Positions 1,313 through 44,687 are shown, numbered from the stretch's first letter. The stretch is 64,000 nt of DNA from Cenarchaeum sp. (GCA_965242695.1 CBDESU010000001.1:960001-1024000), one strand, 5' to 3'. The notes: generated by a model not told the origin, from the letters alone. Numbers and translations: made by a program.

Positions 1313-2086
1313 GTGCGCGGCGTGCGCGTCGGGATCGTCGTGTTTCCGGGCAGCAACTGCGACCGCGACATGCTCCACGTAATGCGCGACGTATATGGCA
1401 TGGACGCCCGCCTCCACTGGCACGGCGATCCGCTGCCCGAGGACGAGCCGTACGACGCGGCCGTCCTGCCCGGCGGGTTCTCGTACGGCGACAGGCTGCG
1501 CGCCGGCGCGATCGCGGCCCACAGCCCCTCGATAGACGGCGTGCGGGGGATGGCCGAGAGCGGCGCGCCCGTCCTCGGCGTGTGCAACGGCTTTCAGATA
1601 CTCGTCGAGGCCGGAATGCTGCCCGGCGCGCTGCTGCGCAACGACACGCTGCGGTTCACGTGCGGCTGGACGTCGCTGTCCGTCGAGAATGCATCGACGC
1701 CGTTCACCCGCATGATGCGGCGCGGCATGCGCATGCCCATACCCGTGGCCAACGGCGAGGGCAGGTACTATGCCGACGCGCCGACCCTTCGCTGCCTCGA
1801 GGACAACGGGCAGGTCGTGTTCAGGTACGCGGACGGCGGCAACCCCAACGGCTCGACGGCCGGCATCGCCGGCGTGTGCAATGCGGAGGGAAACGTGGTC
1901 GGAATGATGCCGCATCCGGAGCGCGCCGCCGAGGCGGAGATAAACCCCGTCGACAGCGGGCCCGCCTCGCTCCTGTTCAAAGCCATGTCCGGCGAGCCTG
2001 CGATGAATGCAATTGCGGTGGGCCGCGGCCGGCGCGGAAGCGGCAAGGGCGGCAGCGCAAGGGGGTCTGCAGCACGCCGCCGCTGA
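1313..2086 (+). CDS. purQ: FGAM synthase glutaminase subunit PurQ
   Basis: Motifs VFPGSNCD, GGFSYGD, GVCNGFQIL (catalytic Cys) and GMMPHPER. Confidence 0.96.
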   Translation: MRGVRVGIVVFPGSNCDRDMLHVMRDVYGMDARLHWHGDPLPEDEPYDAAVLPGGFSYGDRLRAGAIAAHSPSIDGVRGMAESGAPVLGVCNGFQILVEAGMLPGALLRNDTLRFTCGWTSLSVENASTPFTRMMRRGMRMPIPVANGEGRYYADAPTLRCLEDNGQVVFRYADGGNPNGSTAGIAGVCNAEGNVVGMMPHPERAAEAEINPVDSGPASLLFKAMSGEPAMNAIAVGRGRRGSGKGGSARGSAARRR

Positions 2087-8872: not shown

Positions 8873-9345
8873 CAGGCGTGAATATGAAGGCGCTCGCCGT
8901 ATCCCCGGGCATCCCGCCCCGCCTCTCGCCTTGTCCGTGGCATTCATTGTGTGGTAGGTGAGCAGTTCCAGCCCGGCAGGCCCACAATGCGCATGCGGTC
9001 CCGTCCGTCGCATTCTGCACAATGCCAATGAGTGGATTGCGCGATCCTCATTTTTGCCAACGCTGTCGCCTAGTCAGGTCATTGAAGCGCATGTGGCAAC
9101 CTGCCTGCGGTGGTACCCAAGACGTGCCGTCCTGACAGTGAAAACGGCGCGCGGCGGAAATGGGCAGGCTGCCCAAGCTTGCCGCAATGTTCAAAAGCCG
9201 GCTGCAGAGGGCGGGCGGCAGGCGGGGGGAATACTGTCGACGGTCGAAATGCGTGGAACGGGAGCATGGATGTCCTTGGCGGCATCGTGTGCGGCAGCTG
9301 CCGCCAATCCCACCGCGATCATTCCCCGTGCGGGGGCGGCCTAGC

Positions 9346-19100: not shown

Positions 19101-22100
19101 GACGAGCACGCCGGCCCGCAGGATGCGCGCCCCGGCCGCCTCTTGCTCTCCGGCCCCGGAGGGATCCCAGTCAGCCTTGCCGGCGCCTCGTTCTCGTCGA
19201 TCTCATCGTCGGCCATACTCGAGATGCGCCTTACCGCGGCCCAGGCCGCCGCCGCGCGCAGCCTGCACAACGACACTGGCGGCCGCATAATGCTCGTCCA
19301 GTCGGGGCCTGGCGCATTCTCCGACCTTGCCGGCAACCCGTCGGGGCAGGGCCTGACGCCGCCGGCGGGCCTCCCCGTGTCCGTCGCGCCAGAGGGCGCA
19401 GCGGCGCCGATCCGCCTCGCCTCCGCCGCCGTAGACCTTGCCGGCGGGACGGTCGAACTCGTGTTCGACGGCAACGTGTCCGTCCCCGCACTGGACTTGT
19501 CCAGGATCGCCGTGCTCGGCAGCGACCGCACCGGAGGCTCGACCCCCCTGCACGGCGCGTCCGTGCAGCCGGATGCGGCAAGCGCCTCGCGGATCGCGAT
19601 CGCGCTCACCGGGGCCCAAAAGGCGTCGATCGCGGCGTCGTACGCGGCCACCGGCTCTGCGGGAGCTGCCGTCGATGCGGCCCCGTCCGCCGTCCGCGAC
19701 CGGTTCTACCGCGCGTTCGAGGGGGCCGCCGCATTCCCCGCCGTCCCTGACCCCGACCGCACGCCTCCCGTCCTGTCCGGCGCGACCGTAGACCTGTCGG
19801 CGGGGACAGTCCTAGTCGAGCTCGACGAGTTCGTCGACCCCGGGTCGGTCGACGCATCGGCCGTGTCCGTCGCGGCCCCAGCCCCGGCCAACGCATCGGC
19901 GCAGGCGGCGGCGCCCGTCCGGCTCGACGGCGCCCGCGTACTGACGCTCGGCGGCTCGCAGTCCGTCCTGCTCGCCATGACCGCCGGCCAGAAGGCGGCC
20001 GTATCGTCGCTGCTCGGCTCGTCCGGCGCCGGCGAGCTGCACGTGCGCACGGCGGCAGGCGCCCTTGCGGACGTGTCGGAGAACAGGCAGGATGCTCCCG
20101 ACACGGCAGAGGCCAGGGTCGTGCACGACGCATCCCCGCCGTCCCTTGATGCACTGCACTCGGCCCCCGTCCTGGACTTGGGCGCGGGCACCCTTGCGAT
20201 GTCGTTTGACGAGCACGTCGCGGCGGCATCCTCGCCGTCATCGCCGTCCGTCTCGCTCTCGGCCGCATCCCCGGGCGCGCACCCTGTCCGGCTGTCGGGC
20301 AGCCAGCAGCAGGGCGGCGGCGGAGGCGGCTCGTCGACGTCCGTCACGCTGCTCCTGACCCCTGCGCAAAAGGGCGCCCTCCTCTCGGGCGGCCCCGGCG
20401 CCGCCGAGTCGGCGCGCCTGTTCCTGGACGCCGGCGCGTTCGCCGACCTGGCAGGCAACCCGTCGTCGCCGTCCCGCCTGCCCCGCATCGAGGCCGTGGC
20501 CGACGCCGTCGCACCCGGGATCGATCCCGCGCACCCGCCGGTCCTCGACATGGGCAGCGGCGCGCTGGGCATCGCGTTCGACGAGTACGTCGATCCGGCC
20601 GCGCTCGACCTGTCCGGCCTGTCCGTATCCTCGGGCGCGCAGGGCGCCGTGCGGATCGCCCTGACGGACGCCCGGATAGAGCCGCTGGCTGGCGGCACGG
20701 ACGCGGTGACGCTGCTCCTCACGCGGGCCGAGAGGGGCGCGGTGGCGGCCGCCCTCGGCCCGCCGCCGCATGCGGACGGCGCCGTCCTGCACATCGCCGC
20801 CGGCGCGTTCGCCGACCTGTCGGGCAATCCGGCCGCCGCCGGCGCCATTGGCATCTCGGCGGTCGCCCCCGACCGCATCCCGCCCCACCTTGACAGGTCG
20901 GCCGATCCGCTGCTCAACCTGGCGCTCTCGCCGCCCGTCCTCGAGCTCGACTTTGACGAGCACATCGACGTGCGGGCGGCCAACCTCTCGCTCGCCGCGC
21001 TGCGCATCTCCGGCGCCGCCGGCGGCGGGCCCGGCGCGGTAATCGGACTGGCCGGCGCCGAGGCGTCGGGGGCGTCCTCATCCGCAGGCGACTACCGCAT
21101 CCGCATCGCGCTCACGGCAGGGCAGGCCGGGGACCTGGAGGCGGCACTTGGCGGCCCGGGATCCCCGGCGCGGCCGTACCTTGACGCGGCCGCCGGCGCG
21201 TTCGCCGACCTGGCCGGCAACCGGCTTGGCGCCCTCGGCAACCACACCGTGCTGGTGGCCCGCGACGCCGTCGCGCCGTCCCTGGCATCCTCGCCCGAGC
21301 TGGACCTTGACGGGCGCCTCCTAGTCCTCTCGTTCAGCGAGCCGGTCCGCCTGTCGGCGCCCGGCGACGCCTCGGAGGTGCGCATCTCGGGCGCGTCCGG
21401 ATCGCATCCGTTCTCGCTCGGCGGAGGCGGCGGCGCCGTCGTGGCGGCCCCTGCCGGCGCCTCGTACGGCACTTCGATCGAGGTGCGCCTTGGCGCATCG
21501 CAGTCCGAGCGCGCAAAGCTCGCGATGCTCGCCGACGGCGACCTCCTTGTGACCGTGCCGGCAGGCGCCGTCCACGACCGCGCGTACAACCACTTTGCGG
21601 GGCTCGACGGGGCGCACCTGTTCGTCGAGCCCGACACGCGGGGGCCGGCCGTGGCTGGCCTCGGAGCGGCGGCACCCCCGCTGCCGCCGGGACGCTCGGC
21701 TGCCGTCCTCGACCTTGCGCACGGCCTGATCACGGTCCAGCTCGACGAGCATGTAGACTCTGCGCGGATCGACCTGGCCGGCGCATCCGTCTCGCGGGCG
21801 TCGGCCACCGTCGGGCTCGCCGGCGCGGCGGCCGAGCCTGGCGGCGCGGCGGCCGCATCGCCGGCCGATGCCGCATCCTCGCCGTCTACGGCGCTGCGCG
21901 TGCTGCTCACGCATGCCCAAAAGTCCGAGCTGTCGTCGGCCGGCGGCCCCTCGGAGGAGGCGGCCACGCTCTCGATCCCGGCAGGGGCGCTCTACGACCT
22001 GGCCGGCAACCCGTCGCCGGCGGCGGCCGGAATCCCGCTCGCGGTCGTGCCCGACACGATCCCGCCGTCGGTCGACGCGCCGTCCATACTTCCCGTCCTG

Positions 22101-25100
22101 GACCTGGCCGACGGGACGATCGAGATCCACTTCGACGAGGGCGTCTCGCCGGCGGCCGGCGCCTTTGCCGGCATGCGGGGCGCCGGCGGCAGCGGCAGCG
22201 GCAGCGGGAGCGGCGGCCAGGCCGGCCCCGCATACGCCCCCGGCATCGACATCGCCGTGTTCGACGGCTCGGCCGGCGGCGACGGCCGCCACCGCATCCC
22301 CCTCGGCGGCCACGCAACCCTGGCAAACGGCACCGACGGAGACACGGTCGCCGCCAGGATCGCGCCCGACCAGAAGGCGGCCCTGGTCGAGGCCGTCAGG
22401 GCGTCTGCGCTCCTCGGGTTCGGCGCGCCCGCCACGCTCCTGCTCGGCGACGGCCTCGTGTCCGACCTGTCGGGCAACGGGCTTGCGGGGTACGGCGCGG
22501 CGGCCGGCCGCACCGGCGGCGTGGCAGCCGCGATCGTCCACGACGACCGGCCGCCGGCCCTTGACGCCTCGCGCCCGCCCGTGCTCGACATGGGCAGCGG
22601 CGTGCTGTCGGTCTGGTTCGACGAGTACGTAAGGGCCGGCCCGGCGGCCGATGCCCCCGCCGCCCCGCTTGCGCTCGTGGTGAGGCCGCAGGGGAATGCG
22701 TCCGATCCCGTTCGAATAGGGATCCCGCTCGACTCTCTGGCATCCCCGCCCGGATGGGCCGGCTCGGACGAGATCGCCGTGTCCCTCACGCCGGGGCAAA
22801 AGGCGGCCGTGGCCGCCGCGAGCGGCCGCGCGCAGGAGCCTTCGGCGCAGCCGGCGCCCGTCTCGATCGAGATCGCAGCCGGCGCCGTGTCGGACCTGTG
22901 GGGCAACGCGTTCGCAGGAGCCTCGCAGCCGGCGCAGGTGCAGGTGCAGGTGCAGGTGCGCGCCGACGCTTCGCCGCCCGTCCTCGGGCGCCCTCCAGTC
23001 CTGAACACGGCCGCCGGCACCGTCCTGATCGACCTGGACGAGTTCGCCGACGCCCGCGCCGCCGACGCCTCTGGCATTTCGCTGTCCGGGGGAGGCGCGC
23101 ATGCAAGGCTCGATGCGGCAAATACGAGCGTAGAGGCGGCGCAGGCAGGGGCCACGGGCCTGCCCGGAAACTACTCTGACCGGATCGTCGCAAGGCCGGC
23201 CCAGGGCGCCCTCGCGGCAGTCGCAATGCACGCATCGCAGCCGTTTTCGTACGCCACCATGAACATCTCGGCCGGGGCTCTGGCCGACCTGGCCGGCAAC
23301 CCCGCCGGGGCCATTGCGCGCGCGCCCGTAGAGGCGACCGACGACGACTCGCCGCCGGCCCTCTTGAACGCGACCGTCGACCTTGCCGACGGCGACGTGA
23401 TTCTCGAGTTTGGCGAGCCCGTCGACGCCGCCGGGGCCGTCCTCTCGGGGATGCGCCTTGTCGGGGCGCCCCGGGAAGGCGCGGATGCGCCTGCCGTGCC
23501 CCTTGCCGGCGCGTCCCTGCTCCTTCCGAACGGCGGGCAGCCCGACGGGCGCGTAGAGATGCGCCTGTCCGGCGCGCAAAAGGCCGCCGCCGCGGCCGCA
23601 TACTCGGCCTCGCCGCAGTCCCTGCGCCTGGAAGCGCCGGCCGGCGCAGTCGGCGACCCGTACGGCAACCCGTCGGCGGCGATCGACGAGGCCGCATCGG
23701 TCAGGCCCGACCGGACGCCGCCTGCCGTGCTGTCCGGCCGCCTCTCGCCCGTTCTCGACCTCGGCGCCGGCACGCTTGCGCTTCGGTTCAGCGAGCATGT
23801 CGACGCCGGCGCGATCGACCCGTCGGGCATCTCGGTGCGCGGAACCGGCGGAGCGGCCGCCCAGCTTGCCGGCGCCGCAGTCGCAGACCCGCCGGAATCG
23901 GGGTACGCCGGCGCGATCGTGCTGGAGCTGCCGGCGGCCCTCAAGGCGGCCGCCGCGCAGGCGGCCGGCCCGCGCACGCTTGCCGGCACGCTCGACATCG
24001 CGGCCGGCGCGTCCGTGCGCGATGCATCGTCAAACCCCCTCGGCGCGGCCCAGGGCGTGCGCATGCTCGTGCTCCCCGACAGGGCCCCGCCGCGCATCGA
24101 AGCGGCCGACACGGTGGTGGACCTGCGCGCCGGCGTCGTCACGATCGCCGTCGACGAGCACGTCCGGCTCTCGTCGGTCGACGTGTCTAGGATAGCGGTC
24201 GGCCCGCCGCCGCCGCCTGCGGCGGCGGAGGGAGGGGCGGGGGCGGGGGCCGATCCCGTCGGCCTCGGCTCTGCGCCCTCCTCGTCCCTGGCGCAGCCTG
24301 CCGCCGTCGACGCATCGCAGGGCGCATTCTCGGACCGCATCGCAATACGCATGGCCGCCGGCCAGGCCGCGGCCATTGCGGCCTCGCTTGCCGCCGCGCC
24401 GGCGGCCGGCGCGTCGGGCAGCGCCTACCTCTACGTCGAGCCCGGCGCGTTTGCCGACCTGTCCGGCAACGCGCACGCCGGCGTGCGCGGGCTGCCGGCC
24501 GGCGCGACCCCCCCGCCGGTCTCTGTCGTCTCGGCGGCGGTCACGGGGCCGGGCGCCGCCTCGGTCGAGTATACGTACGACCGCCTCTTGGCCGGCCCGC
24601 AGGACTATTCCCTGTCCGTCGGCGGCGCCGGGCGCACGGTGGCCTCTGTCAACGGGTCCGGATCGTCGGCCGTCCACGCGCTTGCGTTCGAGCCGGCGGA
24701 TGCGGCGGCCGATGCGACCGGCACTGTGAGCATCGCGCCCCTCTCTGGCGAGGGCTACGTGTTCGGCGGCGCCGGCCCGCTAGCAGTCTCCGACGGGCAG
24801 GGCCCCGCGGCCGTGCAGGCGGCCGCGCTCGGCCCGTCCTCGCTGTCGCTGCGGTTCGACGAGCCGGTCGCAGGCGTGGATGCGGCGGACCTGTCCGTCG
24901 AGGCCGGCGCCGGCGCGCCGGCGGCCGTCGAGGTGCTGTCCGTGGACGGGACGGGCCGCTCGCGCACGGTCCTGCTCGGCTCGCCTGCCCTGGCAGGCGG
25001 CGCGCCGGGAACCGTCACCGTGCTGGGCGGATCGTACGAGGACCTGGCAGGCAACCCGTCGCCGCCTGCGGCCGAGGCGCTGCCGATAGAGCCGGCCGCG

Positions 25101-28100
25101 GCGGCGGTGCGCGCAGCGGACGAGGCGCCCGTCCCCGTAACCACGGACTCGATCGCCCGCAGCGTGGCCGGCCCGTCCCCGTCGATCGACCTGTCGGCGG
25201 TCAACGGCACGTTCCCCGCTGGCGGCAACTTTACGCTCACGGCGGAGGGGCAGGGCGGCCCAGGCGCGCCGCCGCTGGCGGTAGTCACGTTTGCGGCCGG
25301 AACGACTGCGACGGCCTCGCCTGCCGCGCAGGGCCCCAGCGCGCCGCCCAGGCTCGTCATCTCGGTCTCCGAGGCGGCCGCGGACGCGGCCGGCCGCCTC
25401 CTGCCAGACCGCTCCGCGGTCGGCGGGGGCGCGCTCGGCCCGCTCGTAGAGATCGGCGCAGGGGGCAACCGCACGGTAGAGTTCGACAGGCCCGCCCGCA
25501 TATTCCTGCCCGGGGCGGCCGGCTCTGACGCGTTTTGGATATCGCCCGGGCGCCCGGCCGAGCTGATCGCCGCCGCGTGCGCATCGCCCGTCGATACGGC
25601 CGCGGTAGAGGCCCAGCTCGGCGGCGCAGGCCAGTGCGCGGCCGACCACATGGGCGGCAAGGTGATCTACACGCACCACCTCACCGTGTTCGGCACCGTC
25701 GCCCCGCCGGAGGCGCGCGCCGCGCTCCCTGCGCCGCCCGGGTACGAAGGGCCGGCGCAGCCGGCCGGCGCATGCTCGGACGACCCGTCGCGGTGCTCGT
25801 ACGCCGCGTTCGATGCGGCGCCGGGCCTGCCGAGGCTGGCCGGCCCGTCGGCCGCCGCCGCGTCCGGCCCGTCAGCGGGGCCGGCCGGCGGCAGGACGAC
25901 GATCTACGCGGCAGGCCCCGCGTCGGATCCCGCCCTCGGCGACTCGATATACGCGATCGATGCGCCCGGCGGCGCCGCGCCGGCCGAGATGCGGCCAGAG
26001 TTGGAGGAGGGCCGGCCCAGGGCGGCCCTCCGCATACTCGACATGCTGCCCGTCGGGGCCCCTTCGTCCCCCGGAGGCGCCGCGCCGTACGTGCTCGCCT
26101 CGGCCACGTCCTCGCCGATCCCGCAGGGCAACTCCACGCACTCCCTCCCTCCCTCTCCCGTCCTGCTCGTCGTCGACGCGCAGGAGCGCGCAGTCGCCGG
26201 CCACGCCCCCCTCTCGTACGTCGACCACCTGGGCAGGGCCGAGTACCGCGCCGCGCCGGCCCTGCTCGGCGCGCACGCCGGCGGAGGGCCCGGCGGGGCA
26301 GGCGCGGGGGCCGCGTACGCGGGGATGCAGCTGGCGGGGCCGGACGGGCGCTCGCTTGCCGGCGGCCCAGTCCTGCTCGTCGATGCGTCGGCGGCGCCCG
26401 ACGTCGAGGTCGTCCCGATCTACGGGGACCCGGACGGCGGCGCAGGCGGCGAGCGAATGCCCCCGTCGCCGTCGGGGTACTACTACCCGCGCGAGGGCTG
26501 GCAGCCGACGGCGATGGCCGCGCACGGGAGCACGGTGTACATGGTCGGCGCCGCCTGGCAGCCCGGCGCCTGGACGGCCGGGCAGGGGGCGCTGCCAAAC
26601 TCGTACGGGCTGCACACGCTCTCGTTCGCCGCCAACGGAAGCGATGCGGCGGCGGCCGCAGGCGGGGGCGCCGTCCAGCCCCGCTACGCCCTCGTCTCGA
26701 GCATCGAGGCGGCGCGCCTTCCCGACCGCGCGGCGGACAACTCGTCGTACACGGCGGCCGGCATGGCCGTCGACGCGGCCCGGTCAAAGCTGTACGTGCT
26801 GTACGAGAACGGCACGCTTGCGGCGTACTCGCTTGCGGCGGGCTTGGGATCCGGCGCGCAGGGAACGCCGGTCCCGTCGTTCCTGTACCACGTCGACACG
26901 GCGGTCGGCGACCCGCGCGACCTGGCGCTCGATGGCGGCACCGGAATACTGTACGCCGCCTCGGGCGGATCCGTGCGCGTGTACGACGCGCAGCGCGACA
27001 GGCTGATCGCCGCGGTTCCCGTGCTCGGCGGCAGCGGCAGCGGAGGCATAGCATCCCTTGCGCTGGCCGCGCCCGCCCTGGGCCAGGCGGGCCCCGACGT
27101 GTATGCAGTGCCGTCCTCGCCGGACGAGCCGGTGCGCATCGTGCGCGCCTCCGTCGGGGACGCGATGCCGCAGCCGCCGCCGCTGGTCGCGTCCGTCTCC
27201 GCCGCGGCCGGCTCGTACCCCGCCGGCTCGTCCGTGGATATCGCGGTAAGGTTCTCGCGCGCAGTCGACGCCGCCGGCGCGCCCGAGCTTGCGCTCGACG
27301 TGGGGCGCCGCGGAGGGGCCGCCGCGGCCGTGTACGCGTCGGGCTCGGGCACCGCCTCGCTCGCATTCTCGTATACGGTGCAGGCGGGCGACTCGTCGGC
27401 CGACCTCTTGTACGCCGGCACCGGCGCGCTGTCCCTGCCCGCGGGCGCGTCGATATCGGGCGCATCCGACGGCGCGCCGGCATCCCTGGCCCTCCCGCCG
27501 CCCGGCCCGCTCGCCGGCGCCGGCGGAGGCGCAGTGCGCATAGAAGGGGGAGCGGCAGGCGGAGGAAGTGCAATTCCGCCCGTCGTGGTCGTCGACCCCG
27601 CTGCCGGCTCCGGCTCCGGCGCGGCGCCGTCGGGGCCGGGCTTTGTGGGAGCTGGCGGAGGCGGATCCGGCGGAGGCGGAGGCGGGGGCGGAGGCAGCGG
27701 CCGAATCGGCCTTGCGGTCGGCGCCGGCTCTTCCCTCGAGGTGTCGTCCGTATCGTGGGACTGCAACAGGGGCATGGCCTGGATAACCCTCGGCGGCCTG
27801 CCGGCCGGCGGCGCAGCCGCCGCCCTTCCAGACGTGAGTATACTCGCATCGTCGGGCACGACGGCGGCGCGCGCCGTGCCAGGCGCCGCCGGCCAGAACG
27901 CGGCATACGAGGCCGACCTGCCCGAGGACGACGTATTCCTGGTCCGCGCGACCCTTGTCGACGGGCGCGATGCCGCCTCGGTGTCAAAGACGGTCCGCAC
28001 GGGAGGGCAGTGCGCCGGCGAGGCCGTGTTCGATGCCGGCGCGGCAGGGGCCGCGGCGGCGGCCGCCGCCGGGGGCGCCGCAGGACAGGCGGCGGGCATG

Positions 28101-28919
28101 CCCGATGCCGCCCCCGGGCAAGAGGCCTTGGCGACCCCCGAGCCGCAGCCTCCGGCGCCGTCTGGCGGCGAGGGCGCGGCAGGGGACGGCAGCGGCGATC
28201 AAGCCCCCGAGCCGGCGCCGCCCGCGCGGGCGCAGGAAGATCCAGAGCCTGCCGAGGCTGAGGCCGAGTCAGAGGCCGAGGACGAGCCTCCCGCGCAGGA
28301 CCTGCAGCAGGAGCAGCCGCCGCCCGATGCCCCGGCGCAGCAGGAGCCAGGCATGGCAGGCTCCGGGGGCGCGGCCGACGGAGGCGGAGGCTGCCTTGTC
28401 GCAACGGCCGCGTACGGGACAGAGCTTGCCCCGCAGGTGCAGGCGCTGCGCGAGGTGCGCGACGGCGCCGTCATGCAGACCGGCGCCGGCGCAGCGCTCT
28501 TGTCCACGTTCCATACGGCATACTATGCGGTCTCGCCGCAGGTCGCAGACCTGGAACGCGGGCATCCCATGTTCAGGGATGCCGTCCGCGCCGCGATCGC
28601 CCCGCTGCTCTACTCGGCTCAGGTCCTGTCGCTCGCCGAGCCCGGCTCGGATGCCGGCATCCTGGCATACGGCGCGGCGGCGATCGCAATGGCGGCCGGC
28701 TGTACGTTGCTGCGCCGGCCGCTGCGTCTCGGCTTGCCCCTGCCGCCAAGAGGCGGCCGGGGGGCTGCGGCGGCGAGGGCCGCCGATAGCGCGGCATCCC
28801 TGGGCCCGCCCCCCACCGCCCGCCCACGCTGCGCGCGGCCCTCCCTCCTACCCATTCCCAGTAGCGCAGAGGGGCGCGGGCGCACTTGGCCCCCGATCGC
28901 CCAAACAGTGACATTATAA
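13188..28919 (+). CDS. Giant surface protein 1 (5243 aa): signal peptide, His-rich tip, about 28 Ig-like repeats, HLTxFG domain, beta-propeller, Ig-like domain, CFI-box-CTERM (frameshifted tail)
   Basis: Hydrophobic N-terminus then LLPQAHA; repeated 'D..PP.L..P.LDL..G.L...FDE...LT..QKA...DLSGN'; C-terminal GGCLVATAAYGTELAPQVQALREVRD. The anchor continues in another frame to TAG at 28789. Confidence 0.9.
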   Translation: MAGGNIGSGGGRGARRPLLGMALPLAALLAAAVAAGAAGSWQAHDAGTVAGEARPADAAGQWAHPLLPQAHATVHVSNMKVIGSHQFQIHWDLHMVDMRSKLGQPAFTPGGTRNIVGMTGHLTSNHVYTVDGAALSPSATGYVVMRHGDYYSPPGHGHGHRSWYDWRLNLADGQAPTLDRSSTPTLDLSRGTITFRADERLHASNPSPQNIRIIGAGHTLSSSSAVSITPVGGGAYGSSDVVVTLTGHDHEVLDRNMGSRTSTTMKIGGMGLYDSAGNSFNTGRWWQTMNVVRDTAPPVLARNPQLDFNTGVLTITFDEPVTYVYLPYLFLEDSRGGSRQHVSGASYPSGLDSTVVPITLSASQLERLASLHLASGGLRLDMHRGIVRDVVGNVFAGVFDRTIDVTADTTRPALEPGRSPVVDLSRHTVSLVFDERMDVSESNPAGVRLLNSSGHPVPLAGESARGYDGATVTLSLSKINKARIAEMGTPLRIAFGADAFKDVWGNAASASSGVAASVVADTSRPGVQGRPQLDMNDGILTVPYSEAVYTGRMSPSGYTLLVSDPSSPAQRTRVGLGGAHVATEGPYAAEVDMRLTEAQRAAVASAGGPSPAVSLTIGGWAYLDYPAGNRGWYVSHSGIGVGVVDDTTPPRNATAPVLDLDAGTVAIEFDEYIDASAFDPAGMAIVPSDGPPIPMGNSTLSSAADGALATLNMTGAGAAEAGAADRRGADLRLTVPGTAFSDMSGNAYAGLDNATIIEAGGAGLPGLAGGEPLVLELSNGTLEIRFDEGVIVPSDLSGIAVSGQGGPVLAGLAGAAAAEGAGNVSDTITIDLTPLQKALLAAEYAGGDGGGWLAIDIARDVFVPEVGRGFPGLSNVNLTVIPDGRPPDLAGTPSISPAARTVTLPFDEYIDLARVDAGGIVVHDGRGGAVAGLAGAAVSSPDGAAYGGELVVTMTPAQGFAVIVAALRGDVYLNVSASAVYDVSGNAYGGLDTSDSSAAQGGGAGDGRQSASAEAPPARAAATEGAPVKLAPLPPQPHAVPPLGIDLVFGSPPQLRAVPEPVRLDLGTGVLEIEFDQLVSLAATNLTGAEIRGAGTTVGLEGAGVPADGILDSTVVVRLTPAQKAGAVAAGPAALLHLPAGFAALLGPPSEVVAGARIAVAADGAPPSIDAGRTVLDLGAGRLAVSYDEHVAGPPGGLDPGAFAVALGGNGSGGRIPLAGAFAAAAANDTVVVSLAPPQKARLDRAAALDAQAMRLDAAAGAALDLSGNPSGRVSGANLSVALDAAPPALAGAPILNLGTGSVTLAFDEFVEAGSLAPQAVTVTDRDGNGAESPMPAAGAGAGAGAGAGGDGTRLALEFSPAQAAALRAANASAGPLRIAVAAGSGIADLSGNAFAGLPGGGALTTVDDSVPPAILPGTSPALDIGTGVLSIMFTEHVPASGIDLSGAAIEDANGAVRVPLSGARIVPPSGPEVQYRTVEDDTLRIFLTADQKGAVARAHIEAGPVRLDLPSESISDAAGLRFAGLSNAPLAVASDSAGPQIRDRTLPSLDMAHGLLTVPFDEYIDAAGADMSGFELSGRPPGSQGANASVPLAGAGLASELDGAELRVRVEPRQLAALTGGGLTGIPPEVYLSIAPGAVRDVSGNAFAGLDGELIEALPDEAPPALPSPPIIDLDDGVVVVSFDEYVAATALNASGVSLVGDGSAGPGPGAPAGAGGPAMVRLSGAAVSAYGPSIPLSGGGLGSQSVLIEMTADQKAEAVLARALEIDIDGPAAGLTDLSGNAYGGIERGLAYVVPDETGPDADAPGSARTPSLDMRTGTLTLPFDEHVDPSSIDPSRVVVAVAPAPAPAGASSPPDRAPPPSTVRVGLAGAAPSVSASSPPSAYLVLTADQKAAVQRALEAHGGPQAAIASVDAARGAAADLSGNAMPAARGLAASVMADAEGPALASPAGGHPPAALDLVRGTIALEFDEHAGPQDARPGRLLLSGPGGIPVSLAGASFSSISSSAILEMRLTAAQAAAARSLHNDTGGRIMLVQSGPGAFSDLAGNPSGQGLTPPAGLPVSVAPEGAAAPIRLASAAVDLAGGTVELVFDGNVSVPALDLSRIAVLGSDRTGGSTPLHGASVQPDAASASRIAIALTGAQKASIAASYAATGSAGAAVDAAPSAVRDRFYRAFEGAAAFPAVPDPDRTPPVLSGATVDLSAGTVLVELDEFVDPGSVDASAVSVAAPAPANASAQAAAPVRLDGARVLTLGGSQSVLLAMTAGQKAAVSSLLGSSGAGELHVRTAAGALADVSENRQDAPDTAEARVVHDASPPSLDALHSAPVLDLGAGTLAMSFDEHVAAASSPSSPSVSLSAASPGAHPVRLSGSQQQGGGGGGSSTSVTLLLTPAQKGALLSGGPGAAESARLFLDAGAFADLAGNPSSPSRLPRIEAVADAVAPGIDPAHPPVLDMGSGALGIAFDEYVDPAALDLSGLSVSSGAQGAVRIALTDARIEPLAGGTDAVTLLLTRAERGAVAAALGPPPHADGAVLHIAAGAFADLSGNPAAAGAIGISAVAPDRIPPHLDRSADPLLNLALSPPVLELDFDEHIDVRAANLSLAALRISGAAGGGPGAVIGLAGAEASGASSSAGDYRIRIALTAGQAGDLEAALGGPGSPARPYLDAAAGAFADLAGNRLGALGNHTVLVARDAVAPSLASSPELDLDGRLLVLSFSEPVRLSAPGDASEVRISGASGSHPFSLGGGGGAVVAAPAGASYGTSIEVRLGASQSERAKLAMLADGDLLVTVPAGAVHDRAYNHFAGLDGAHLFVEPDTRGPAVAGLGAAAPPLPPGRSAAVLDLAHGLITVQLDEHVDSARIDLAGASVSRASATVGLAGAAAEPGGAAAASPADAASSPSTALRVLLTHAQKSELSSAGGPSEEAATLSIPAGALYDLAGNPSPAAAGIPLAVVPDTIPPSVDAPSILPVLDLADGTIEIHFDEGVSPAAGAFAGMRGAGGSGSGSGSGGQAGPAYAPGIDIAVFDGSAGGDGRHRIPLGGHATLANGTDGDTVAARIAPDQKAALVEAVRASALLGFGAPATLLLGDGLVSDLSGNGLAGYGAAAGRTGGVAAAIVHDDRPPALDASRPPVLDMGSGVLSVWFDEYVRAGPAADAPAAPLALVVRPQGNASDPVRIGIPLDSLASPPGWAGSDEIAVSLTPGQKAAVAAASGRAQEPSAQPAPVSIEIAAGAVSDLWGNAFAGASQPAQVQVQVQVRADASPPVLGRPPVLNTAAGTVLIDLDEFADARAADASGISLSGGGAHARLDAANTSVEAAQAGATGLPGNYSDRIVARPAQGALAAVAMHASQPFSYATMNISAGALADLAGNPAGAIARAPVEATDDDSPPALLNATVDLADGDVILEFGEPVDAAGAVLSGMRLVGAPREGADAPAVPLAGASLLLPNGGQPDGRVEMRLSGAQKAAAAAAYSASPQSLRLEAPAGAVGDPYGNPSAAIDEAASVRPDRTPPAVLSGRLSPVLDLGAGTLALRFSEHVDAGAIDPSGISVRGTGGAAAQLAGAAVADPPESGYAGAIVLELPAALKAAAAQAAGPRTLAGTLDIAAGASVRDASSNPLGAAQGVRMLVLPDRAPPRIEAADTVVDLRAGVVTIAVDEHVRLSSVDVSRIAVGPPPPPAAAEGGAGAGADPVGLGSAPSSSLAQPAAVDASQGAFSDRIAIRMAAGQAAAIAASLAAAPAAGASGSAYLYVEPGAFADLSGNAHAGVRGLPAGATPPPVSVVSAAVTGPGAASVEYTYDRLLAGPQDYSLSVGGAGRTVASVNGSGSSAVHALAFEPADAAADATGTVSIAPLSGEGYVFGGAGPLAVSDGQGPAAVQAAALGPSSLSLRFDEPVAGVDAADLSVEAGAGAPAAVEVLSVDGTGRSRTVLLGSPALAGGAPGTVTVLGGSYEDLAGNPSPPAAEALPIEPAAAAVRAADEAPVPVTTDSIARSVAGPSPSIDLSAVNGTFPAGGNFTLTAEGQGGPGAPPLAVVTFAAGTTATASPAAQGPSAPPRLVISVSEAAADAAGRLLPDRSAVGGGALGPLVEIGAGGNRTVEFDRPARIFLPGAAGSDAFWISPGRPAELIAAACASPVDTAAVEAQLGGAGQCAADHMGGKVIYTHHLTVFGTVAPPEARAALPAPPGYEGPAQPAGACSDDPSRCSYAAFDAAPGLPRLAGPSAAAASGPSAGPAGGRTTIYAAGPASDPALGDSIYAIDAPGGAAPAEMRPELEEGRPRAALRILDMLPVGAPSSPGGAAPYVLASATSSPIPQGNSTHSLPPSPVLLVVDAQERAVAGHAPLSYVDHLGRAEYRAAPALLGAHAGGGPGGAGAGAAYAGMQLAGPDGRSLAGGPVLLVDASAAPDVEVVPIYGDPDGGAGGERMPPSPSGYYYPREGWQPTAMAAHGSTVYMVGAAWQPGAWTAGQGALPNSYGLHTLSFAANGSDAAAAAGGGAVQPRYALVSSIEAARLPDRAADNSSYTAAGMAVDAARSKLYVLYENGTLAAYSLAAGLGSGAQGTPVPSFLYHVDTAVGDPRDLALDGGTGILYAASGGSVRVYDAQRDRLIAAVPVLGGSGSGGIASLALAAPALGQAGPDVYAVPSSPDEPVRIVRASVGDAMPQPPPLVASVSAAAGSYPAGSSVDIAVRFSRAVDAAGAPELALDVGRRGGAAAAVYASGSGTASLAFSYTVQAGDSSADLLYAGTGALSLPAGASISGASDGAPASLALPPPGPLAGAGGGAVRIEGGAAGGGSAIPPVVVVDPAAGSGSGAAPSGPGFVGAGGGGSGGGGGGGGGSGRIGLAVGAGSSLEVSSVSWDCNRGMAWITLGGLPAGGAAAALPDVSILASSGTTAARAVPGAAGQNAAYEADLPEDDVFLVRATLVDGRDAASVSKTVRTGGQCAGEAVFDAGAAGAAAAAAAGGAAGQAAGMPDAAPGQEALATPEPQPPAPSGGEGAAGDGSGDQAPEPAPPARAQEDPEPAEAEAESEAEDEPPAQDLQQEQPPPDAPAQQEPGMAGSGGAADGGGGCLVATAAYGTELAPQVQALREVRDGAVMQTGAGAALLSTFHTAYYAVSPQVADLERGHPMFRDAVRAAIAPLLYSAQVLSLAEPGSDAGILAYGAAAIAMAAGCTLLRRPLRLGLPLPPRGGRGAAAARAADSAASLGPPPTARPRCARPSLLPIPSSAEGRGRTWPPIAQTVTL

Positions 28920-28956: not shown

Positions 28957-31900
28957 TTGACGGCGCGCATCGGATCACTATCATGGGGACGGCATGGTGT
29001 TGCGCCCGATCGGCGCGCCTCTACAGCCTCTGGCATGCTGCCGCATGCGCAGGACGGCGGCCGATGCGATCGCCCCTCCCGCGGCAGGGGCAGGGGTGCG
29101 AGGTCCCTGCTGCCAGGCCTAGCCCTGGCCGGCGCGGCCGTCGCCGCAGCGGCACTCGTGGCCGCCGCGCCGGGCATCGTCCTCGTAGACGATGGCGGCG
29201 GCGACGCGCAGCGCGCATCCGCGCTGGACCGCATCCTGCCGCAGGCGTACGCGCACAATGCGCGCATCACCACCCAGGACGTGGAAGGGTTCATCACCGG
29301 GCCGCACAAGATCGAGATGTTCTTCCACCAGAGCAACATGGTGAACGCGCGCAACCTGCTCACGAATCCGTCCATATCGGACGGCCACTCGAGGCCGGTA
29401 ACCGCCTACGCCACCAACCAGGGGCCAAGCCCGCTGCATCCCCCGAGCCAGAGGTATCCCCAGAACACGTGGGACATGCACCATACGGTCACCGTCGGCG
29501 GCGCGGCCATGCCGACGGACGCCACGGGCTCGCTTACGATACGCGACGGCCTCATATGGATCTCCCACTACAACAGGGCGACCGGCACCCCCGAGCACTG
29601 GCACCGCCTCCACCCCACGCGCCACGTAGATCTGCACGACCGGCAGCCCCCGCTCATCGACACCTCGGTCAGGCCGACGCTCGACATGAGTGCGGGCACA
29701 TTCACGTTCAGAGCGACCGAGCCGCTCACGATCGGCCCCGGCGGGGCGACCCCCCAGAATGTCGGGATAGCGAGCCTCGGGTCGCTGACATCGAGCGCCA
29801 CGGTGTCCGTCAGCGGAGCCGACGTCACGATAACCATGTCGCCGGCCACGCACGAGCGCATCGACAAGGCCCTTAACAGCTGGCCATCCTCGACTACGAC
29901 GACCACGATGAAGTTTGCGACGATCAACCTCCGCGACATTGCAACAAGGCACGACGCCGAGCACGGCCACTACGGCTACGACCTCAACTCGGGCAGGTGG
30001 TGGATGCCGATCACGATCGTCCGAGACACGGCCCCTCCCGTCCTTGTGGGCAGCCCGCGGCTGGACTTCAACACGGGCGTGCTGACCCTCACGTTCGACG
30101 AGCCGATCACATACGTGTACATGCCCTACCTGTTCCTCGAGGACGGGAACGGCGCGAGCCGCCAGCACGTCACCGGCGCATCGTACCCGAGCGGCCTGGA
30201 CTCGACGGTAGTGCCGATCACCCTCTCAAAGTCCCAGCTCGAGAGGCTCTCGTCCATGTATGCCGCGTCCGGCGGCCTGCGCCTCGACATGCACCGCGGG
30301 ATCGTAAGGGATGCGGCCTCCAACATATTTCCCGGCGTCTTTGACAGGGCGATCGATGTCGCGCCCGACAGCATAAGGCCGGTGCTCGACGCGGGCAGGG
30401 CGCCGAGCGTCGACCTGTCGCGGCAGCGGATTACGGTGCACTTTGCAGAGGCCATGGACGTGTCGCGGACGGATACGTCAAAGATAATCGTGTCGAACGC
30501 GACCGGCGGCGGCAGGGTTCCGCTCTCGGACGGGACCGTGTCCGGCCGCGACGGGAGGGCCGTCACGGTGTCGTTCCCGCCGGCGACAAAGGCGGTGATA
30601 GCAGACATGGGCACCGCGCTGCGCGTCGGCGCCGAACCGAACGCGACCCGCGACATCCAGGGCAACGGCAACGATCTCATCGCACCCGTGCAGGCATCCT
30701 ACACGCGCGACACGTCGCGGCCGGGCATCGCCTGGCACAGCCCCGCCCTGGACCTCGGCACGGGGCTGCTCACGATCAGGGCGACCGACGTCATCGACAC
30801 GGATCGCATATACCCCAGAGGGTTCTCCCTGCACCTGGCAGACTCTGCCGATGCGCACCGCAGTACAGACCTGTCGCTGGCGGGGGCCGGCGTGGCGAGT
30901 ACGGGATCCTACGCGGAGACGATGGGGCTGAACCTCACCGCATCCCAGAGGGCCGCCGTCGTCTCGGCCTCGGCCGACGGCGTCCCGAGCGCAAAGGTCG
31001 GGATCAGGGGGTGGGCGTACCAGGACTATCCCGAGCACAACCATGGGTGGTACGTGTTCGGCGCAGGGAGCGCACCCGTGGCAGTCGCTGCCGACGACGA
31101 CCCGCCGCGGCTTGCGTCTGCGCCCGTCGTCGACCTGGACAACGGCAAGCTGCGGCTCGAGTTTGACGAGTACATCGACGTGTCCAGGCTCACCGATCCG
31201 GCCGTCGTCGTGTCTGCGTATGCCGGAAACTCCCTGCTGATACAGGCCGCCGGCGGCGGGCGCGGCCTGTCCATGTCCGCCGGGCAGCCCAACGGCACCC
31301 TGGTCGCACTGGACATGTCCCGTGCGCTAGAGGACTCGGCGTACGCCGTGGACACGTACGAGGACGAGGCCTGGTACGTGTACGTGCCGAGCGGCGCGTT
31401 CCACGACCTGTCGGGCAACGCGTTCGGCGGCGTCGCGAACGCGACGGCGCGCGCGGCCTTCAACCAGAGCGCGCTCGATCTTGCATCGGATCCAAGCCTG
31501 GACCTGGGATCGGGCGAGCTCGTCTTCGAGTTCAACCGCAACGTCTCGGCGCCGGCGCCGGCCTCGCTCTCCGGCATAGTCGTGTCCGCAGCGTCGAACG
31601 GAACGGCGCGCACGGACATGTCCGGCCTGCCCGTCAACCATACGGGCAGCGCGGTGTCGATCTCGCTGACGGCGGACATAAAGGCCGCGCTGGCGGTGGC
31701 CAACATGTCCGGCGCCCTGGCCGTGTCGGTCGGGCCGGATGTATTCGCCGACGACCACCACCACACCTTTGACGGGCTGGCCAATGCGACCCTTGCGGTC
31801 GAGCCCGACCGCGTGCCGCCCTCGATCGCCGAGGGCCCGTCGTTCGACCTGCGCGCCGGCCGCCTGTCGATCGTATTCGACGAGCACGTCGACATGGACA

Positions 31901-34900
31901 GGGCGCAGCCGCGCGGGATCACGCTGTACACCAACGCCACGTCCGTGAGCCTGGCAGGTGCGACGGTCTGGCCCCAGCCGGCCGTCGACGACGACGAGCT
32001 CGTCGTGGCCCTGGCCCCGCTCGAGGTGCTCCGCATGCACCACGCGTTGCGCGGCGGCGCCGCACTGTACGCCAACATTACCTCGTCGACCGCGTCCGAC
32101 CTGTCGGGCAACCCGTTTGCCGGCGCGGTCGGCACTCCCGTGTCGCTCGGCCGGGCGGGCGGGGGCGGGGGCGGAGTCGGATCCGATGTCCGCCAAGGCG
32201 CCGGCACCCTTGGAGCGCCAAGGGGCGGCGGGGGCGGGGGCGGCATCGGCGACGGAGGGTCGAGTCTGGGCGCCAGTTCCGACGCGCAGACCCGGCCGCC
32301 GCTCCGCGGGGCTGTGCCGGGCGCCGGCGCGTTCGAAAAGATTCCGGGCGGCATCGGCGGGCTCGGCTTTGACGGCAGGGACGGGAACGGTGGCCCGGCG
32401 CCGCTCTACGCCTTTGGCTACCCGCCGGTCCTGGCAGCCCAGTCTCCCGTCCGGCTCGACCTGAACACGGGAGTGCTGGAGGTGCAGTTTGCACTCTACA
32501 CCTTTATCGACATGCAGGACGTAGACCTTTCGGGCATCGAGATACACGGCGACGGCGTCCGGGTGTCACTGGAGGGGGCATCCCTCGACCTGGCCGGCGC
32601 CGACATGGTTGGCAATGGATTGTATGCCACGACGGTGGTCGTCAACCTCACCGCTGCCCAGAAGGCCGCCGCCGCCGAGGCCGGCAGCGGCGCGCTCATC
32701 GACATTCCGTACGGCGCGTTCACCGACGGAGACCCGTTCGCCGGCGTCACGGGCGAGCGGATCGCCATAACGAGCGACGCGGCGCCGCCGGCCCTGCTGC
32801 CCGGCGCCAGCTCGCTCGACCTCGGCGCCGGCAGGCTCGTACTCGCGTTTGACGAGCACATTGCGGCGCCGTCGGCCGTCAATCCTGCCGACTTTGACAT
32901 CCTGCCAGGCGGCGATGCCACAGCGCGCGTAAACCTCGACGACGCAAAGTCCGTCCTGGCGTACAACGCCACCGTTGAAATCGTCCTGTCCGCATACCAA
33001 AAGGCGCTCGTCGTCGGAGCGCGCGGCGGCCCGTCCTCGGCGGCCGCGGGCAACGCGTCCGTCAGTACGGCCGCGGCTGGCGCCGTGCGCGACGCGTCGG
33101 GCAACGCCCTGCCGGCCGTGGATGCCCTTTCCATTAGCACCCTTCCAGACGGAGCGGCGCCCGTGCTTGCAGCGGCCCCCATCCTCAACATTGGCGCAGG
33201 CACTCTTACGCTAGACTTTGACGAGTATGTGGGAGCCGTGGCCGGAGTCGTGCCGGCGCAGGTCAGCGTGACGGCGCAGGGCGGCCAGTCGACGTCCTGG
33301 CAGCCGCAGTCCCTGACGACGATGGAGAACGGCACGCGCCTCCAGTTCGCGTTCGGCGATGCGCAGACGGCGGCCCTTCGGCAGGCCAATGCGTCCGCGA
33401 CGGCGCCGCTCGCCCTGGGCGTGGCGGCCGCGGCAGGGATTGCCGACCTGTCGGGCAACCCGTTTGCGCTCGCCGCGGCCAACCTCACGACCGTGGACGA
33501 CGCGACGCCGCCTGCACTCGAGCCCGAGACGCTCCCCGTCCTGGATATCGGGCGCGGCGCGATCACTATGCGGTTTACCGAGCACATCGAGGCCGGAGGC
33601 ATCGACATATCGGGGATGGCCATCGAGGATGCGAGCGGCGCGGCGCGAGTGCACCTTGCAGGCGCCGACGTAAAGCCCCCCGTCGACCCCTCGTCCGAGT
33701 ACATTACGGAAATGGATGCGTCCCTTGTCATCACCCTTACGGCGGCCCAAAAGGGCGCCGTGGCGGCGGCCCAGGCGTCGGCGGGCCCAGTGAGGATCGA
33801 CGCGCCCCCGTCTGCCATAACCGACACGGCCGGATTCTGGTTTGCCGGAATGTCAAACCACCCGCTCGACATCGTTCCCGACACAGTGCCGCCCGCCGTC
33901 GCCGACCCGCCCGCCGTCGCCGACCCGTCGGCATCCTTCCCGCGCCTCGACATGGCCCGCGGCATCCTCTCCGTCCAGTTCGACGAGAGCGTGGACGCCG
34001 GCACGGCCGACCCGTCCGCATTCACTCTGCACTCTGTGCCTGCCGGCTCCGCCGCCGGCACGGCGCCGACCTCTGTCCTGCTCGGCGCCGCGACCGTCCT
34101 GCCGGCCCGGGAAGGCGCCGATGCCACCGTGCTGGAGCTAGGGCTGACGGCGGCCCAGCTCGCCGCCGTGTCGGGCCTGTCAGGCTCCGCAGGGGCCCCG
34201 TCCGTCAACCTGACCATGGCCGCCGGCGCCGTCCGCGACGTGTCGGGCAACGCGTTCGAGGCGTCCGATGTGGGACCCATTGCCGCCACCGAGGACGGCT
34301 CTTCGCCGGTGCTTGCCGCCGAGCCCGTGCTCGACCTCGATGCCGGCACCGTCCTAGTGCAGTTCAGCGAGTACGTCAACGCAAGCGGCATCGACCTGTC
34401 CCGGGTGTCGCTGGTCGGAGTCGAGGCCGAGGCGGCGCTAGTGCAGCTCGGAAGCGGCGGCGCCGGCGGCTCGGCGCAGGCATTTGCGCACGGCCTGTTC
34501 ATCGAGAGCGCCGACGGCTCGACCCGCGCATCGGCGTCCGTCCTGATCAGCCTGACCGGAGAGCAAAAGGCGCTTGCCGCGCACGCGTCCGTCTCGGAGA
34601 TCAGCATCGAGCAGGGCGCAGTCGACGACCTGTCTGCCAATTCCTTCGAGGGAATCGACAGGGCCCTGCTGGCAGTCATACCCGACGAGACGGCGCCCGC
34701 CCTGGCTGGCAACGGCACGTACCTGGATATGGGCGACGGCGTGCTGCACGCCGTATTCGACGAGCATATCGACCCTGCCGAGGTGGATCCGTCGCGCATC
34801 GCGCTGTCCATATACGGCGCATCGGCCAACGGCTCGGCGCCATCCCTTGTGGGCCTGGACGGTGCGGCGCCCCTGCGCTCGGCCCTGTACACGGCCGACG

Positions 34901-44466: not shown

Positions 44467-44687
44467 GCATCGCGGGCATTTGCGCAGCGGCTGGCCACCC
44501 TCTGCCCTCCGTCGCCCGCCGCAGCACCTCCGCCCCGTCCCGCCGCCCCGGTGCCCGAATGTTCGCGCGATCCGCTCCGCCGCGCGTCCTGCGCCGCTGC
44601 GGCGGCCTAGCGGTTCGCGCAACGCCATTTTTATGGCCCTTATAAGGATCGTATTATACATAAATACTACTGCGCTTGCACCCCGGC

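Follow-up and report, generated by a model that had tools for sequence, protein, structure and literature searches.

A GAIN-B/ZU5-type domain with a predicted self-cleavage site in giant anchored proteins of Cenarchaeum sp.

Self-cleaving domains of microbial surface proteins have been described as MAIN domains, which, according to a preprint (Brogan & Rudner, bioRxiv 2026, 10.64898/2026.05.12.724683), have a GAIN-B-like fold and an H-x-S/T site, occur in bacteria and archaea, and were found cleaved, with their halves still associated, in vitro and in vivo. The same source reports that MAIN proteins are anchored and fused to adhesion and enzyme domains, with the MAIN domain between these and the anchor; that nearly all MAIN domains tested, all of them bacterial, were cleaved; and that the halves of YfkN of Bacillus subtilis are released by sodium dodecyl sulfate (SDS) or heat, release by shear being a proposal. 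The concept is thus already in print for microbes, archaea included, and ZU5 autopeptidase domains in bacterial surface proteins were noted in 2012 (for ZU5, PMC3482391, PMC8081665, PMC3210808). Here we analyze a domain of this kind in a stretch of 64,000 nucleotides of a Cenarchaeum sp. genome (CBDESU010000001.1:960001-1024000; hereafter "the window"), which encodes three giant proteins (proteins 1, 2 and 3) that each end in a CFI-box-CTERM anchor and each carry one copy. An original prediction had proposed that these proteins cleave themselves at an H-L-T-x-F-G motif. Literature searches on this domain in ammonia-oxidising archaea and Nitrosopumilaceae gave only the MAIN preprint, the main text of which does not mention "Nitroso", "Thaum" or "CTERM" and the tables of which cover 15,000 proteins; autoproteolysis is not mentioned in the searched passages of two papers on sponge Thaumarchaeota (PMC7848895, PMC6790972).

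Motif, predicted fold and cleavage register

Each giant protein contains one H-L-T-x-F-G (H-L-T-V-F-G in proteins 1 and 2, H-L-T-R-F-G in protein 3), which closes a domain of approx. 170-190 amino acids (aa; Table 1); no further H-[LF]-[TS]-x-F was found in the six frames of the whole window. All three motif places given in the original prediction were confirmed and its 9-mers were right, although the coordinates attached to the 9-mers span the hexapeptide only. The two-Cys pattern described with them is close to the measured one, with Cys-Cys spacings of 18, 17 and 17 residues in proteins 1, 2 and 3 and 11 residues between the second Cys and the conserved Thr, and the proposed CTERM anchoring agrees with the NF041770 scores of all three proteins (60-65 bits, cut-off 40). 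HLTxFG arose by chance in 0.1-0.2% of 2000 residue shuffles of each protein, and all 38 genome-wide matches to H-[LF]-[TS]-x-F-G (ORFs, i.e. open reading frames, of at least 300 aa) lay within a domain of the autoproteolysis type. Contigs from two public sequencing runs were identical to the window across the motif regions of proteins 1 and 2; as these runs are possibly the source sample, this agreement is not independent support.

The domain of protein 2 was modelled with AlphaFold2 from an 88-row alignment (predicted local distance difference test, pLDDT, 90.6; predicted template modelling score 0.87). The model is a beta-sandwich with one short helix, in which the last strands comprise residues 154-162 and 164-168, with Thr163 in the break between them (DSSP). 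The top nine Foldseek rows were all ankyrin, UNC5b (ZU5) or BAI2/BAI3 (GAIN). Structural comparison by VIA-align over 48,161 chains ranked ankyrin-B first (Z 9.6; root-mean-square deviation, rmsd, 4.1; 138 residues aligned), with further ankyrin ZU5 domains at 9.0 and 8.3, the GAIN domain of CD97 at 8.0 (rmsd 4.2, 133 aligned) and 7.5, GPR126 and BAI3 at 6.7, and UNC5b at 6.4; the best clearly unrelated row had a Z of 5.4, and two axonemal chains of unclear kinship had 6.7 and 5.9. A second, independent model, of a copy with R-L-S at the site (pLDDT 93.7), gave ankyrin-B at 9.1 and CD97 at 8.1, with Leu179 in the same register; ankyrin ZU5 thus ranked first for both models, and FIIND, Nup98 and Nup145 were also among the matches. 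Since Z is only moderate, the weight of the fold assignment comes from the number of superfamily members matched and from the register.

With regard to that register, the alignment of the protein-2 model stops at Leu162, which falls on the chain ends GPR110 566, NLRP1 1212 and GPR56 382, and likewise on residues GPR97 249, ADGRL3 854, GPR126 827 and Nup145 605, presumably the residues before the cut, in part judged by the chain end alone. The cleaved fragments of the former three begin at T567 in GPR110 (PMC10148833), S1213 in NLRP1 (PMC9700037) and T383 in human GPR56 (PMC10289240; mouse numbering assumed equal). The comparison with GAIN-B and ZU5 structures suggested along with the original prediction therefore returned a ZU5/GAIN-B-like fold with the motif in cleavage register, and an unrelated fold was not seen. 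Overall, the model and the fold search show a predicted beta-sandwich of the GAIN-B/ZU5 type that ends in a hairpin of the autoproteolytic type.

A chance likeness of the motif, within an unrelated domain shared by the three proteins through paralogy, would fit the lack of family matches: none of the three window domains matched a Pfam family at E <= 0.1 (PF00791 and the GPS families included) or an NCBIfam family, searches of the PDB by sequence gave 0 matches at E <= 10, and Foldseek E-values were above 0.001. In the Atlas, which we use as a lead only, the nearest clusters were unnamed bacterial ones (0.90-0.91) and the nearest named cluster was ZU5 (0.85). Fold rank, register, conservation and profile-profile homology (the latter two described below) are concordant, and coincidence is largely refuted and, in our view, very improbable.

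Spread of the domain family and conservation of the site

An iterated profile built from the three window domains converged on 53 matches in the genome, 47 of them full length, and a wider profile found 50 domains with a C-terminal end in 49 ORFs that represent 9.5% of the genome. In these 49 ORFs the domain always lies between a large N-terminal part and a C-terminal module, which is a CFI box in 17 and a tail domain in 31, the one remaining ORF being a fragment. The tail domain (approx. 135 aa, with a Cys at both bounds and no hydrophobic segment) ends 42 ORFs, 31 of which have the autoproteolysis-type domain; two homologues of it had no NCBIfam match, and we guess that it may be a non-membrane anchor. 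Among the 49 readable sites of the 53 rows, HLT was the most frequent (34), followed by RLS (8), HLS (3), HFT (2), RLG (1) and VLT (1).

Several copies are unusual in arrangement. One protein (C1:1685867-1693552, minus strand) has a tandem pair, R-L-G (no nucleophile) followed by R-L-S; another copy, with H-L-A at the site, is split over three frames (C1:324414-325502, minus strand), and a third is broken by a short internal insertion (C1:343934-346222, plus strand). In a relative, an H-F-T domain lies inside an open frame of 25,697 aa (locus L089, G015:C1:1046300-1047800). A domain protein of approx. 850-920 aa is found in several genomes of the family (G008, G138, G169, G175, G248, G260, G344), and in P0031 and P0112 the domain stands close to the N-terminus, so that the usual order is reversed.

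Among 60 relatives, 36 genomes belong to the same family, of which 13 had matches, as compared to none of 24 from other families; within the genus, matches per genome numbered 53, 44, 10, 2 and 1. In a sample of 300 genomes of the phylum, searched with a profile that includes flanking columns, 23 of 50 same-family genomes and 0 of 250 others matched. The domain is thus characteristic of the family, with a strong expansion in two large genomes of the genus, and was not found in the other families searched. The genome encodes an archaeal AmoA and has a GC content of 67-68%; as high GC is reported as typical of sponge-associated Thaumarchaeota (PMC7848895), the archaeon is probably a sponge symbiont.

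Judging by their other domains, many homologues are bacterial: in 32 proteins scanned, SLH, CWB2 and PG_binding_1 domains lie C-terminal of the domain and Ig-like, HYR, beta-helix, subtilase and propeller domains N-terminal of it. The domain was present in 14 of 301 genomes of a Bacillota sample, and in the one read fully it directly precedes SLH repeats. Word-indexed protein searches returned only 2 and 12 proteins.

Conservation of H-L-T was checked in a phmmer search against 1.84 billion representatives, from which the best 150 of 259 matches gave 153 domain rows. The site is kept in these rows: 148 have the His, 150 have Thr or Ser at the nucleophile, and 150 have an aromatic residue at +2; Thr and Ser interchange at the nucleophile (HLS and HFS also occur). 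At 20 loci picked from related archaeal genomes, His was present in 17 and Ser or Thr in 19; cultured relatives probably have H-F-T homologues. On the strand that follows the conserved P-x-R-I-x-L segment, one column is aromatic in 143 of the 152 rows of homologues, the residue being Trp in proteins 1 and 2 and Tyr in protein 3, and the corresponding column is aromatic in 31 of 35 YfkN-type domains. By alignment, this column would be the His-stacking position (S10.49) of GAIN domains, where it is important that an aromatic residue stacks on the His, and where Phe, Trp and Tyr each support cleavage of ADGRL1 (PMC13062082).

In copies that lack the His, this partner column changes as well. After de-duplication, 231 rows remained, and His or Arg occupies the column in 24 of the 25 that lack the His, as compared to 1 of the 206 that have it. 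In one row a misalignment by one column was corrected manually, and rows with many gaps, including an R-L-T row that keeps the aromatic residue, were excluded. All nine Arg copies of this genome have His in the partner column, and the L-L-S, A-L-S and G-L-S/G copies of relatives have Arg. The association failed in a phylogenetic test, in which supported branches gave only 3 independent pairs (sign test, p ~0.5); the tree has only 6 changes at the His and 4 at the partner. The R-L-S, L-L-S and related copies form a clade of 20 tips from two genomes of the genus (FastTree support 1.0; Table 1).

NLRP1 and CARD8 use a distant His, which in NLRP1 precedes the cut by 26 residues and is followed, nine residues on, by a Glu (H1186/E1195/S1213; PMC9700037); the corresponding pair in CARD8 is reported as H270/E279 and the rat His as H942. 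Nine columns beyond the neighbouring-strand His, Glu stands in 7 of 14 rows of the Arg copies. The catalytic base of the R-L-S clade may therefore possibly have been relocated to the neighbouring strand; it is at least as likely that the R-L-S copies are a dead variant, because R-L-S is also the site of ADGRB3, which is not cleaved in cell lines (PMC13062082). An encompassing picture, in which some 50 surface proteins, about a tenth of the genome, would share one detachable joint tuned per gene, with cutting copies, dead copies (G-L-G, R-L-G and probably L-L-S with Arg) and an R-L-S clade with a moved His as in the FIIND of NLRP1 and CARD8, appears speculative and rather unlikely. If it were true, both catalytic layouts of the ZU5/GAIN superfamily would occur within one paralogue family.

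Self-cleavage, its alternatives and possible release

The original prediction of self-cleavage is supported by the agreement of motif, fold, register, conservation and topology, the term "adhesin" being putative, and we consider cleavage between Leu and Thr in the giant proteins quite likely. A number of observations weigh against it. Foldseek was not significant by itself (best E 0.011 for the protein-2 model; 0.13 in another search), and the structural matches are of moderate strength, with Z 8-9.6 at an rmsd of ~4 A and 9-14% identity, unrelated models often reaching Z 7-8. The top matches are ankyrin ZU5 domains, which are not known to self-cleave. The conservation tally is biased, as the query bore the motif, the rows come from the best 150 of 259 matches and several are near copies of the genome's own paralogues, and the His partner was assigned by alignment, not from coordinates. 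Natural copies without His or nucleophile exist (RLG, GLG, LLS), which means that the canonical site is not needed for every use of the fold, and 31 of the 49 domain-bearing ORFs have no detectable membrane anchor, which a simple model of release from the membrane does not explain. Finally, H-x-S/T is insufficient alone, as ADGRB2, with H-L-S, barely cleaves (PMC13062082).

Several of these points would suit a domain that is a spacer or binding module of ZU5/GAIN fold, uncut or cut too slowly, in which H-L-T-x-F shapes the last turn. The ankyrin ZU5 matches, the almost uncleaved ADGRB2 and the persistence of paralogues without His or nucleophile all favor such a module, and so does the finding that, over 209 rows, invariance is 98-100% for the two Cys, for a Gly and for the Thr at the second position ahead of the His, as compared to 92% for the His and 86% for the nucleophilic Thr. 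Moreover, Thr838Ala unfolds the GAIN domain of ADGRL1 (PMC3321182), which indicates that the Thr is also structural. On the other hand, the His and a hydroxyl nucleophile are kept in archaeal and bacterial homologues at approx. 25-35% identity, with Thr and Ser swapping, and nearly all tested bacterial MAIN domains were cleaved (10.64898/2026.05.12.724683). A cleavage role is also supported by the position of the domain beside anchors, the bacterial homologues having the SLH/CWB2/PG_binding_1 order seen in MAIN proteins. We regard an uncut module as unlikely.

The explanation that we favor, and consider likely as a whole, is that of an exported and anchored protein with a self-cut domain acting as a releasable tether. 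The protein would be exported and anchored through its CFI-box-CTERM end, and a domain of ~175 aa would fold into the GAIN-B/ZU5-type beta-sandwich. As in the GAIN/MAIN mechanism, the His would then deprotonate the Thr hydroxyl, and an N-to-O acyl shift followed by hydrolysis would cut the Leu/Thr bond. The last strand, which begins T-V/R-F-G, would remain inserted in the sandwich and thus hold an outer part of ~410 kDa (proteins 1 and 2) or ~225 kDa (protein 3) non-covalently on an anchored stub of ~95-104 kDa or ~44 kDa, respectively, i.e., the tether would be cut in advance and releasable, as has been proposed for MAIN proteins of bacteria. After release, the propeller of proteins 1 and 2 would be left exposed on the cell. 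Given cleavage, a pulling force as the trigger is a guess that we hold at somewhat below even chances.

The halves could also stay together for life, with the cut serving maturation, export or turnover, or with release by a protease or a chemical cue rather than force; this alternative shares the cleavage step with the tether explanation and differs in purpose only. Cleaved GAIN fragments remain tightly bound (PMC3321182), release of YfkN has been shown only with SDS or heat, shear being a proposal (10.64898/2026.05.12.724683), the Cys-helix-Cys insert beside the site could clamp it, and no membrane anchor was detected in 31 of the 49 ORFs. The constant placement of the domain between a large N-terminal part and a C-terminal module is, conversely, the geometry that release needs. 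A lasting union of the halves is possible, without being the likelier case. If the domains are cut and the tether is releasable, a nitrifying archaeon could shed surface proteins of 200-400 kDa, with relevance to how it attaches, disperses and escapes from host cells. With their different sites (H-L-T, H-L-S, H-F-T, R-L-S, L-L-S, G-L-G), the ~50 paralogues represent a natural mutant series for what GAIN-type cleavage needs beyond H-x-S/T.

The layout of the giant proteins (Table 1) follows the order hydrophobic N-terminus, ectodomains, autoproteolysis-type domain and surface anchor (N-termini by hydropathy; anchors by NF041770 and a C-terminal hydrophobic segment); in proteins 1 and 2, additional domains separate the autoproteolysis-type domain from the anchor. 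The topology of the original prediction stands for proteins 1 and 2 in that ~4,165 aa lie N-terminal of the site and the CFI-box-CTERM C-terminal of it; the propeller-like region likewise lies on the anchored side, on a weak Atlas lead. Cleavage would yield fragments of 4165 + 1078, 4164 + 978 and 2194 + 441 aa in proteins 1, 2 and 3, the 1078 aa of protein 1 including a mis-assembled tail. Contigs from four of four public runs have, at full depth, one extra C at window position 28699, and the window accordingly has a frameshift inside the anchor segment of protein 1; loss of this anchor through the frameshifted tail was rejected in favor of a one-base assembly error, the anchor being normal. 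The stalk of protein 2 has a weak Big_5 match (Pfam). Between the autoproteolysis-type domain and the CFI box, each of the three proteins has a long stretch of poly-Gly linker and, after it, a small domain with two Cys that is common to all of them (~27600-27720, ~43370-43430 and ~59370-59420).

Elsewhere in the window, an ORF directly after protein 2 (44676-46733, plus strand) has many near-identical TPR-like repeats of 34 aa. A 1018-aa ORF (9160-12216, plus strand) has motifs that we take to resemble an adenine methyltransferase fused to a restriction endonuclease, and an ORF at ~2050-4383 (plus strand) is presumably PurL-like.

Table 1. Features of the giant proteins and related elements (window positions unless stated otherwise)
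Feature	Position	Strand	Remarks
Giant protein 1	13188..28919	+	assembled length 5243 aa; hydrophobic N-terminus, stalk of ~24 Ig-like repeats, autoproteolysis-type domain, propeller-like region, linkers, CFI-box-CTERM
GAIN-B/ZU5-fold (MAIN-like) domain, protein 1	25128..25703	+	fold predicted from protein-2 model (51-52% identical); Cys codons begin 25578 and 25635; Trp at presumed His-partner position 25536-25538
Predicted scissile bond, protein 1	Leu 25680-25682, Thr4166 25683-25685	+	motif 25677..25694
Propeller-like region, protein 1	25770..27150	+	bounds approximate; predicted by likeness to protein 2; on would-be anchored fragment
CFI-box-CTERM and hydrophobic anchor segment, protein 1	28392..28760	+	NF041770, 62.2 bits
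Giant protein 2	28957..44466	+	5169 aa from TTG; ATG 27 codons in; layout as protein 1
GAIN-B/ZU5-fold domain, protein 2	41044..41556	+	modelled; Cys 41428, 41482; presumed Trp partner 41386-41388
Predicted scissile bond, protein 2	Leu 41527-41529, Thr 41530-41532	+	turn between last two strands of model; motif 41524..41541
Probable beta-propeller (lactonase/NHL-like), protein 2	41590..42820	+	Atlas scores 0.90-0.92, low recognition value; lead only
CFI-box-CTERM and hydrophobic anchor segment, protein 2	44074..44466	+	NF041770, 65.1 bits
Giant protein 3, C-terminal 1893 aa	58319..64000	-	2635 aa stop to stop, start outside window; beta-helix and propeller-like regions, domain, linkers, CFI-box-CTERM
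GAIN-B/ZU5-fold domain, protein 3	59618..60181	-	Cys 59746, 59692; presumed Tyr partner 59791-59789
Predicted scissile bond, protein 3	Leu 59647-59645, Thr 59644-59642	-	motif 59650-59633
CFI-box-CTERM and hydrophobic anchor segment, protein 3	58319..58762	-	NF041770, 60.1 bits
Tail domain, example	C1:1586187-1590284 (last ~160 aa)		this genome, outside window
Clade of R-L-S, L-L-S and related copies			L022, L001, L020, L021, L024, L026, L027, L030, L040; L093-L106; His or Arg on neighbouring strand

Comparison with known self-cleaving domains

Profile-profile comparison by hhalign with a set of YfkN-type MAIN domains, identified by their architecture of nucleotidase, H-F-S domain and sortase motif, gave a probability of 72.8% (E 3.2e-5, score 35.9; 35 non-redundant rows), as compared to scores of 14.2 for the reversed profile, at most 15.9 for 30 column shuffles and 9.2 for the unrelated tail domain; a narrower set, of 40 rows, gave a probability of 31.8%. 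The two profiles align colinearly over 57 columns, the Cys-helix-Cys insert of the archaeal family falling in a gap, and with the motif strand removed a weak signal was left (E 0.006, narrower set). Direct hidden Markov model searches between the subfamily and the YfkN type did not cross significantly (best E 0.003 at Z=1000), and a YfkN-type profile found none of the domains among the ORFs of this genome. A link to MAIN domains of the H-F-S type was also sought through SLH proteins of one Paenibacillus record, where nothing was found, and a 1667-aa Bacillota protein (G671:C33:9659-10741; L185, L212) was rejected as a bridge because it has a subfamily domain followed by a separate domain of YfkN type. 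By profile comparison, the domain represents a distinct subfamily that is probably remotely related to YfkN-type MAIN and has a Cys-helix-Cys insert.

Besides this probable remote homology, the domain resembles MAIN in its GAIN-B-like fold without a helical A subdomain, in H-x-S/T at the terminal turn, and in its occurrence in large proteins with the order signal, adhesion or enzyme domains, autoproteolysis-type domain and surface anchor. It differs in having H-L-T, as opposed to H-F-S, and a Cys-helix-Cys insert of ~20 aa, which the YfkN type lacks; in its archaeal CFI-box-CTERM or tail without a transmembrane segment, as opposed to sortase or SLH anchoring; in the ~1000 aa, including the propeller, that separate the domain of proteins 1 and 2 from the anchor; and in its 50 copies in this one genome.

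[quoted passage not shown] The GPS pattern of adhesion GPCRs has two disulfides and two Trp, whereas the domain described here has two Cys; it also lacks a GAIN-A subdomain, an adjoining seven-helix receptor and any evident output in signalling. It does not, therefore, belong to the GAIN domains of adhesion GPCRs, being an all-beta sandwich with one short helix in proteins that end in a CFI-box-CTERM and a single hydrophobic segment. Its best structural matches lie in the ZU5 superfamily (ankyrin/UNC5, FIIND of NLRP1/CARD8, Nup98, bacterial ZU5 autopeptidases; Z 8.3-9.6), from which it differs in the lack of a PF00791 match and of UPA or death domains and in being extracellular; bacterial toxin-linked ZU5 domains are N-terminal, whereas this domain is C-proximal. 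Overall, these comparisons support a domain that would work like a MAIN domain and, by its modelled fold, belongs to the ZU5/GAIN superfamily; to the described systems it adds the register evidence, the range of the subfamily, the copy count, the domain's internal position in proteins 1 and 2, where a propeller would be retained, and the covariation of the His with its partner.

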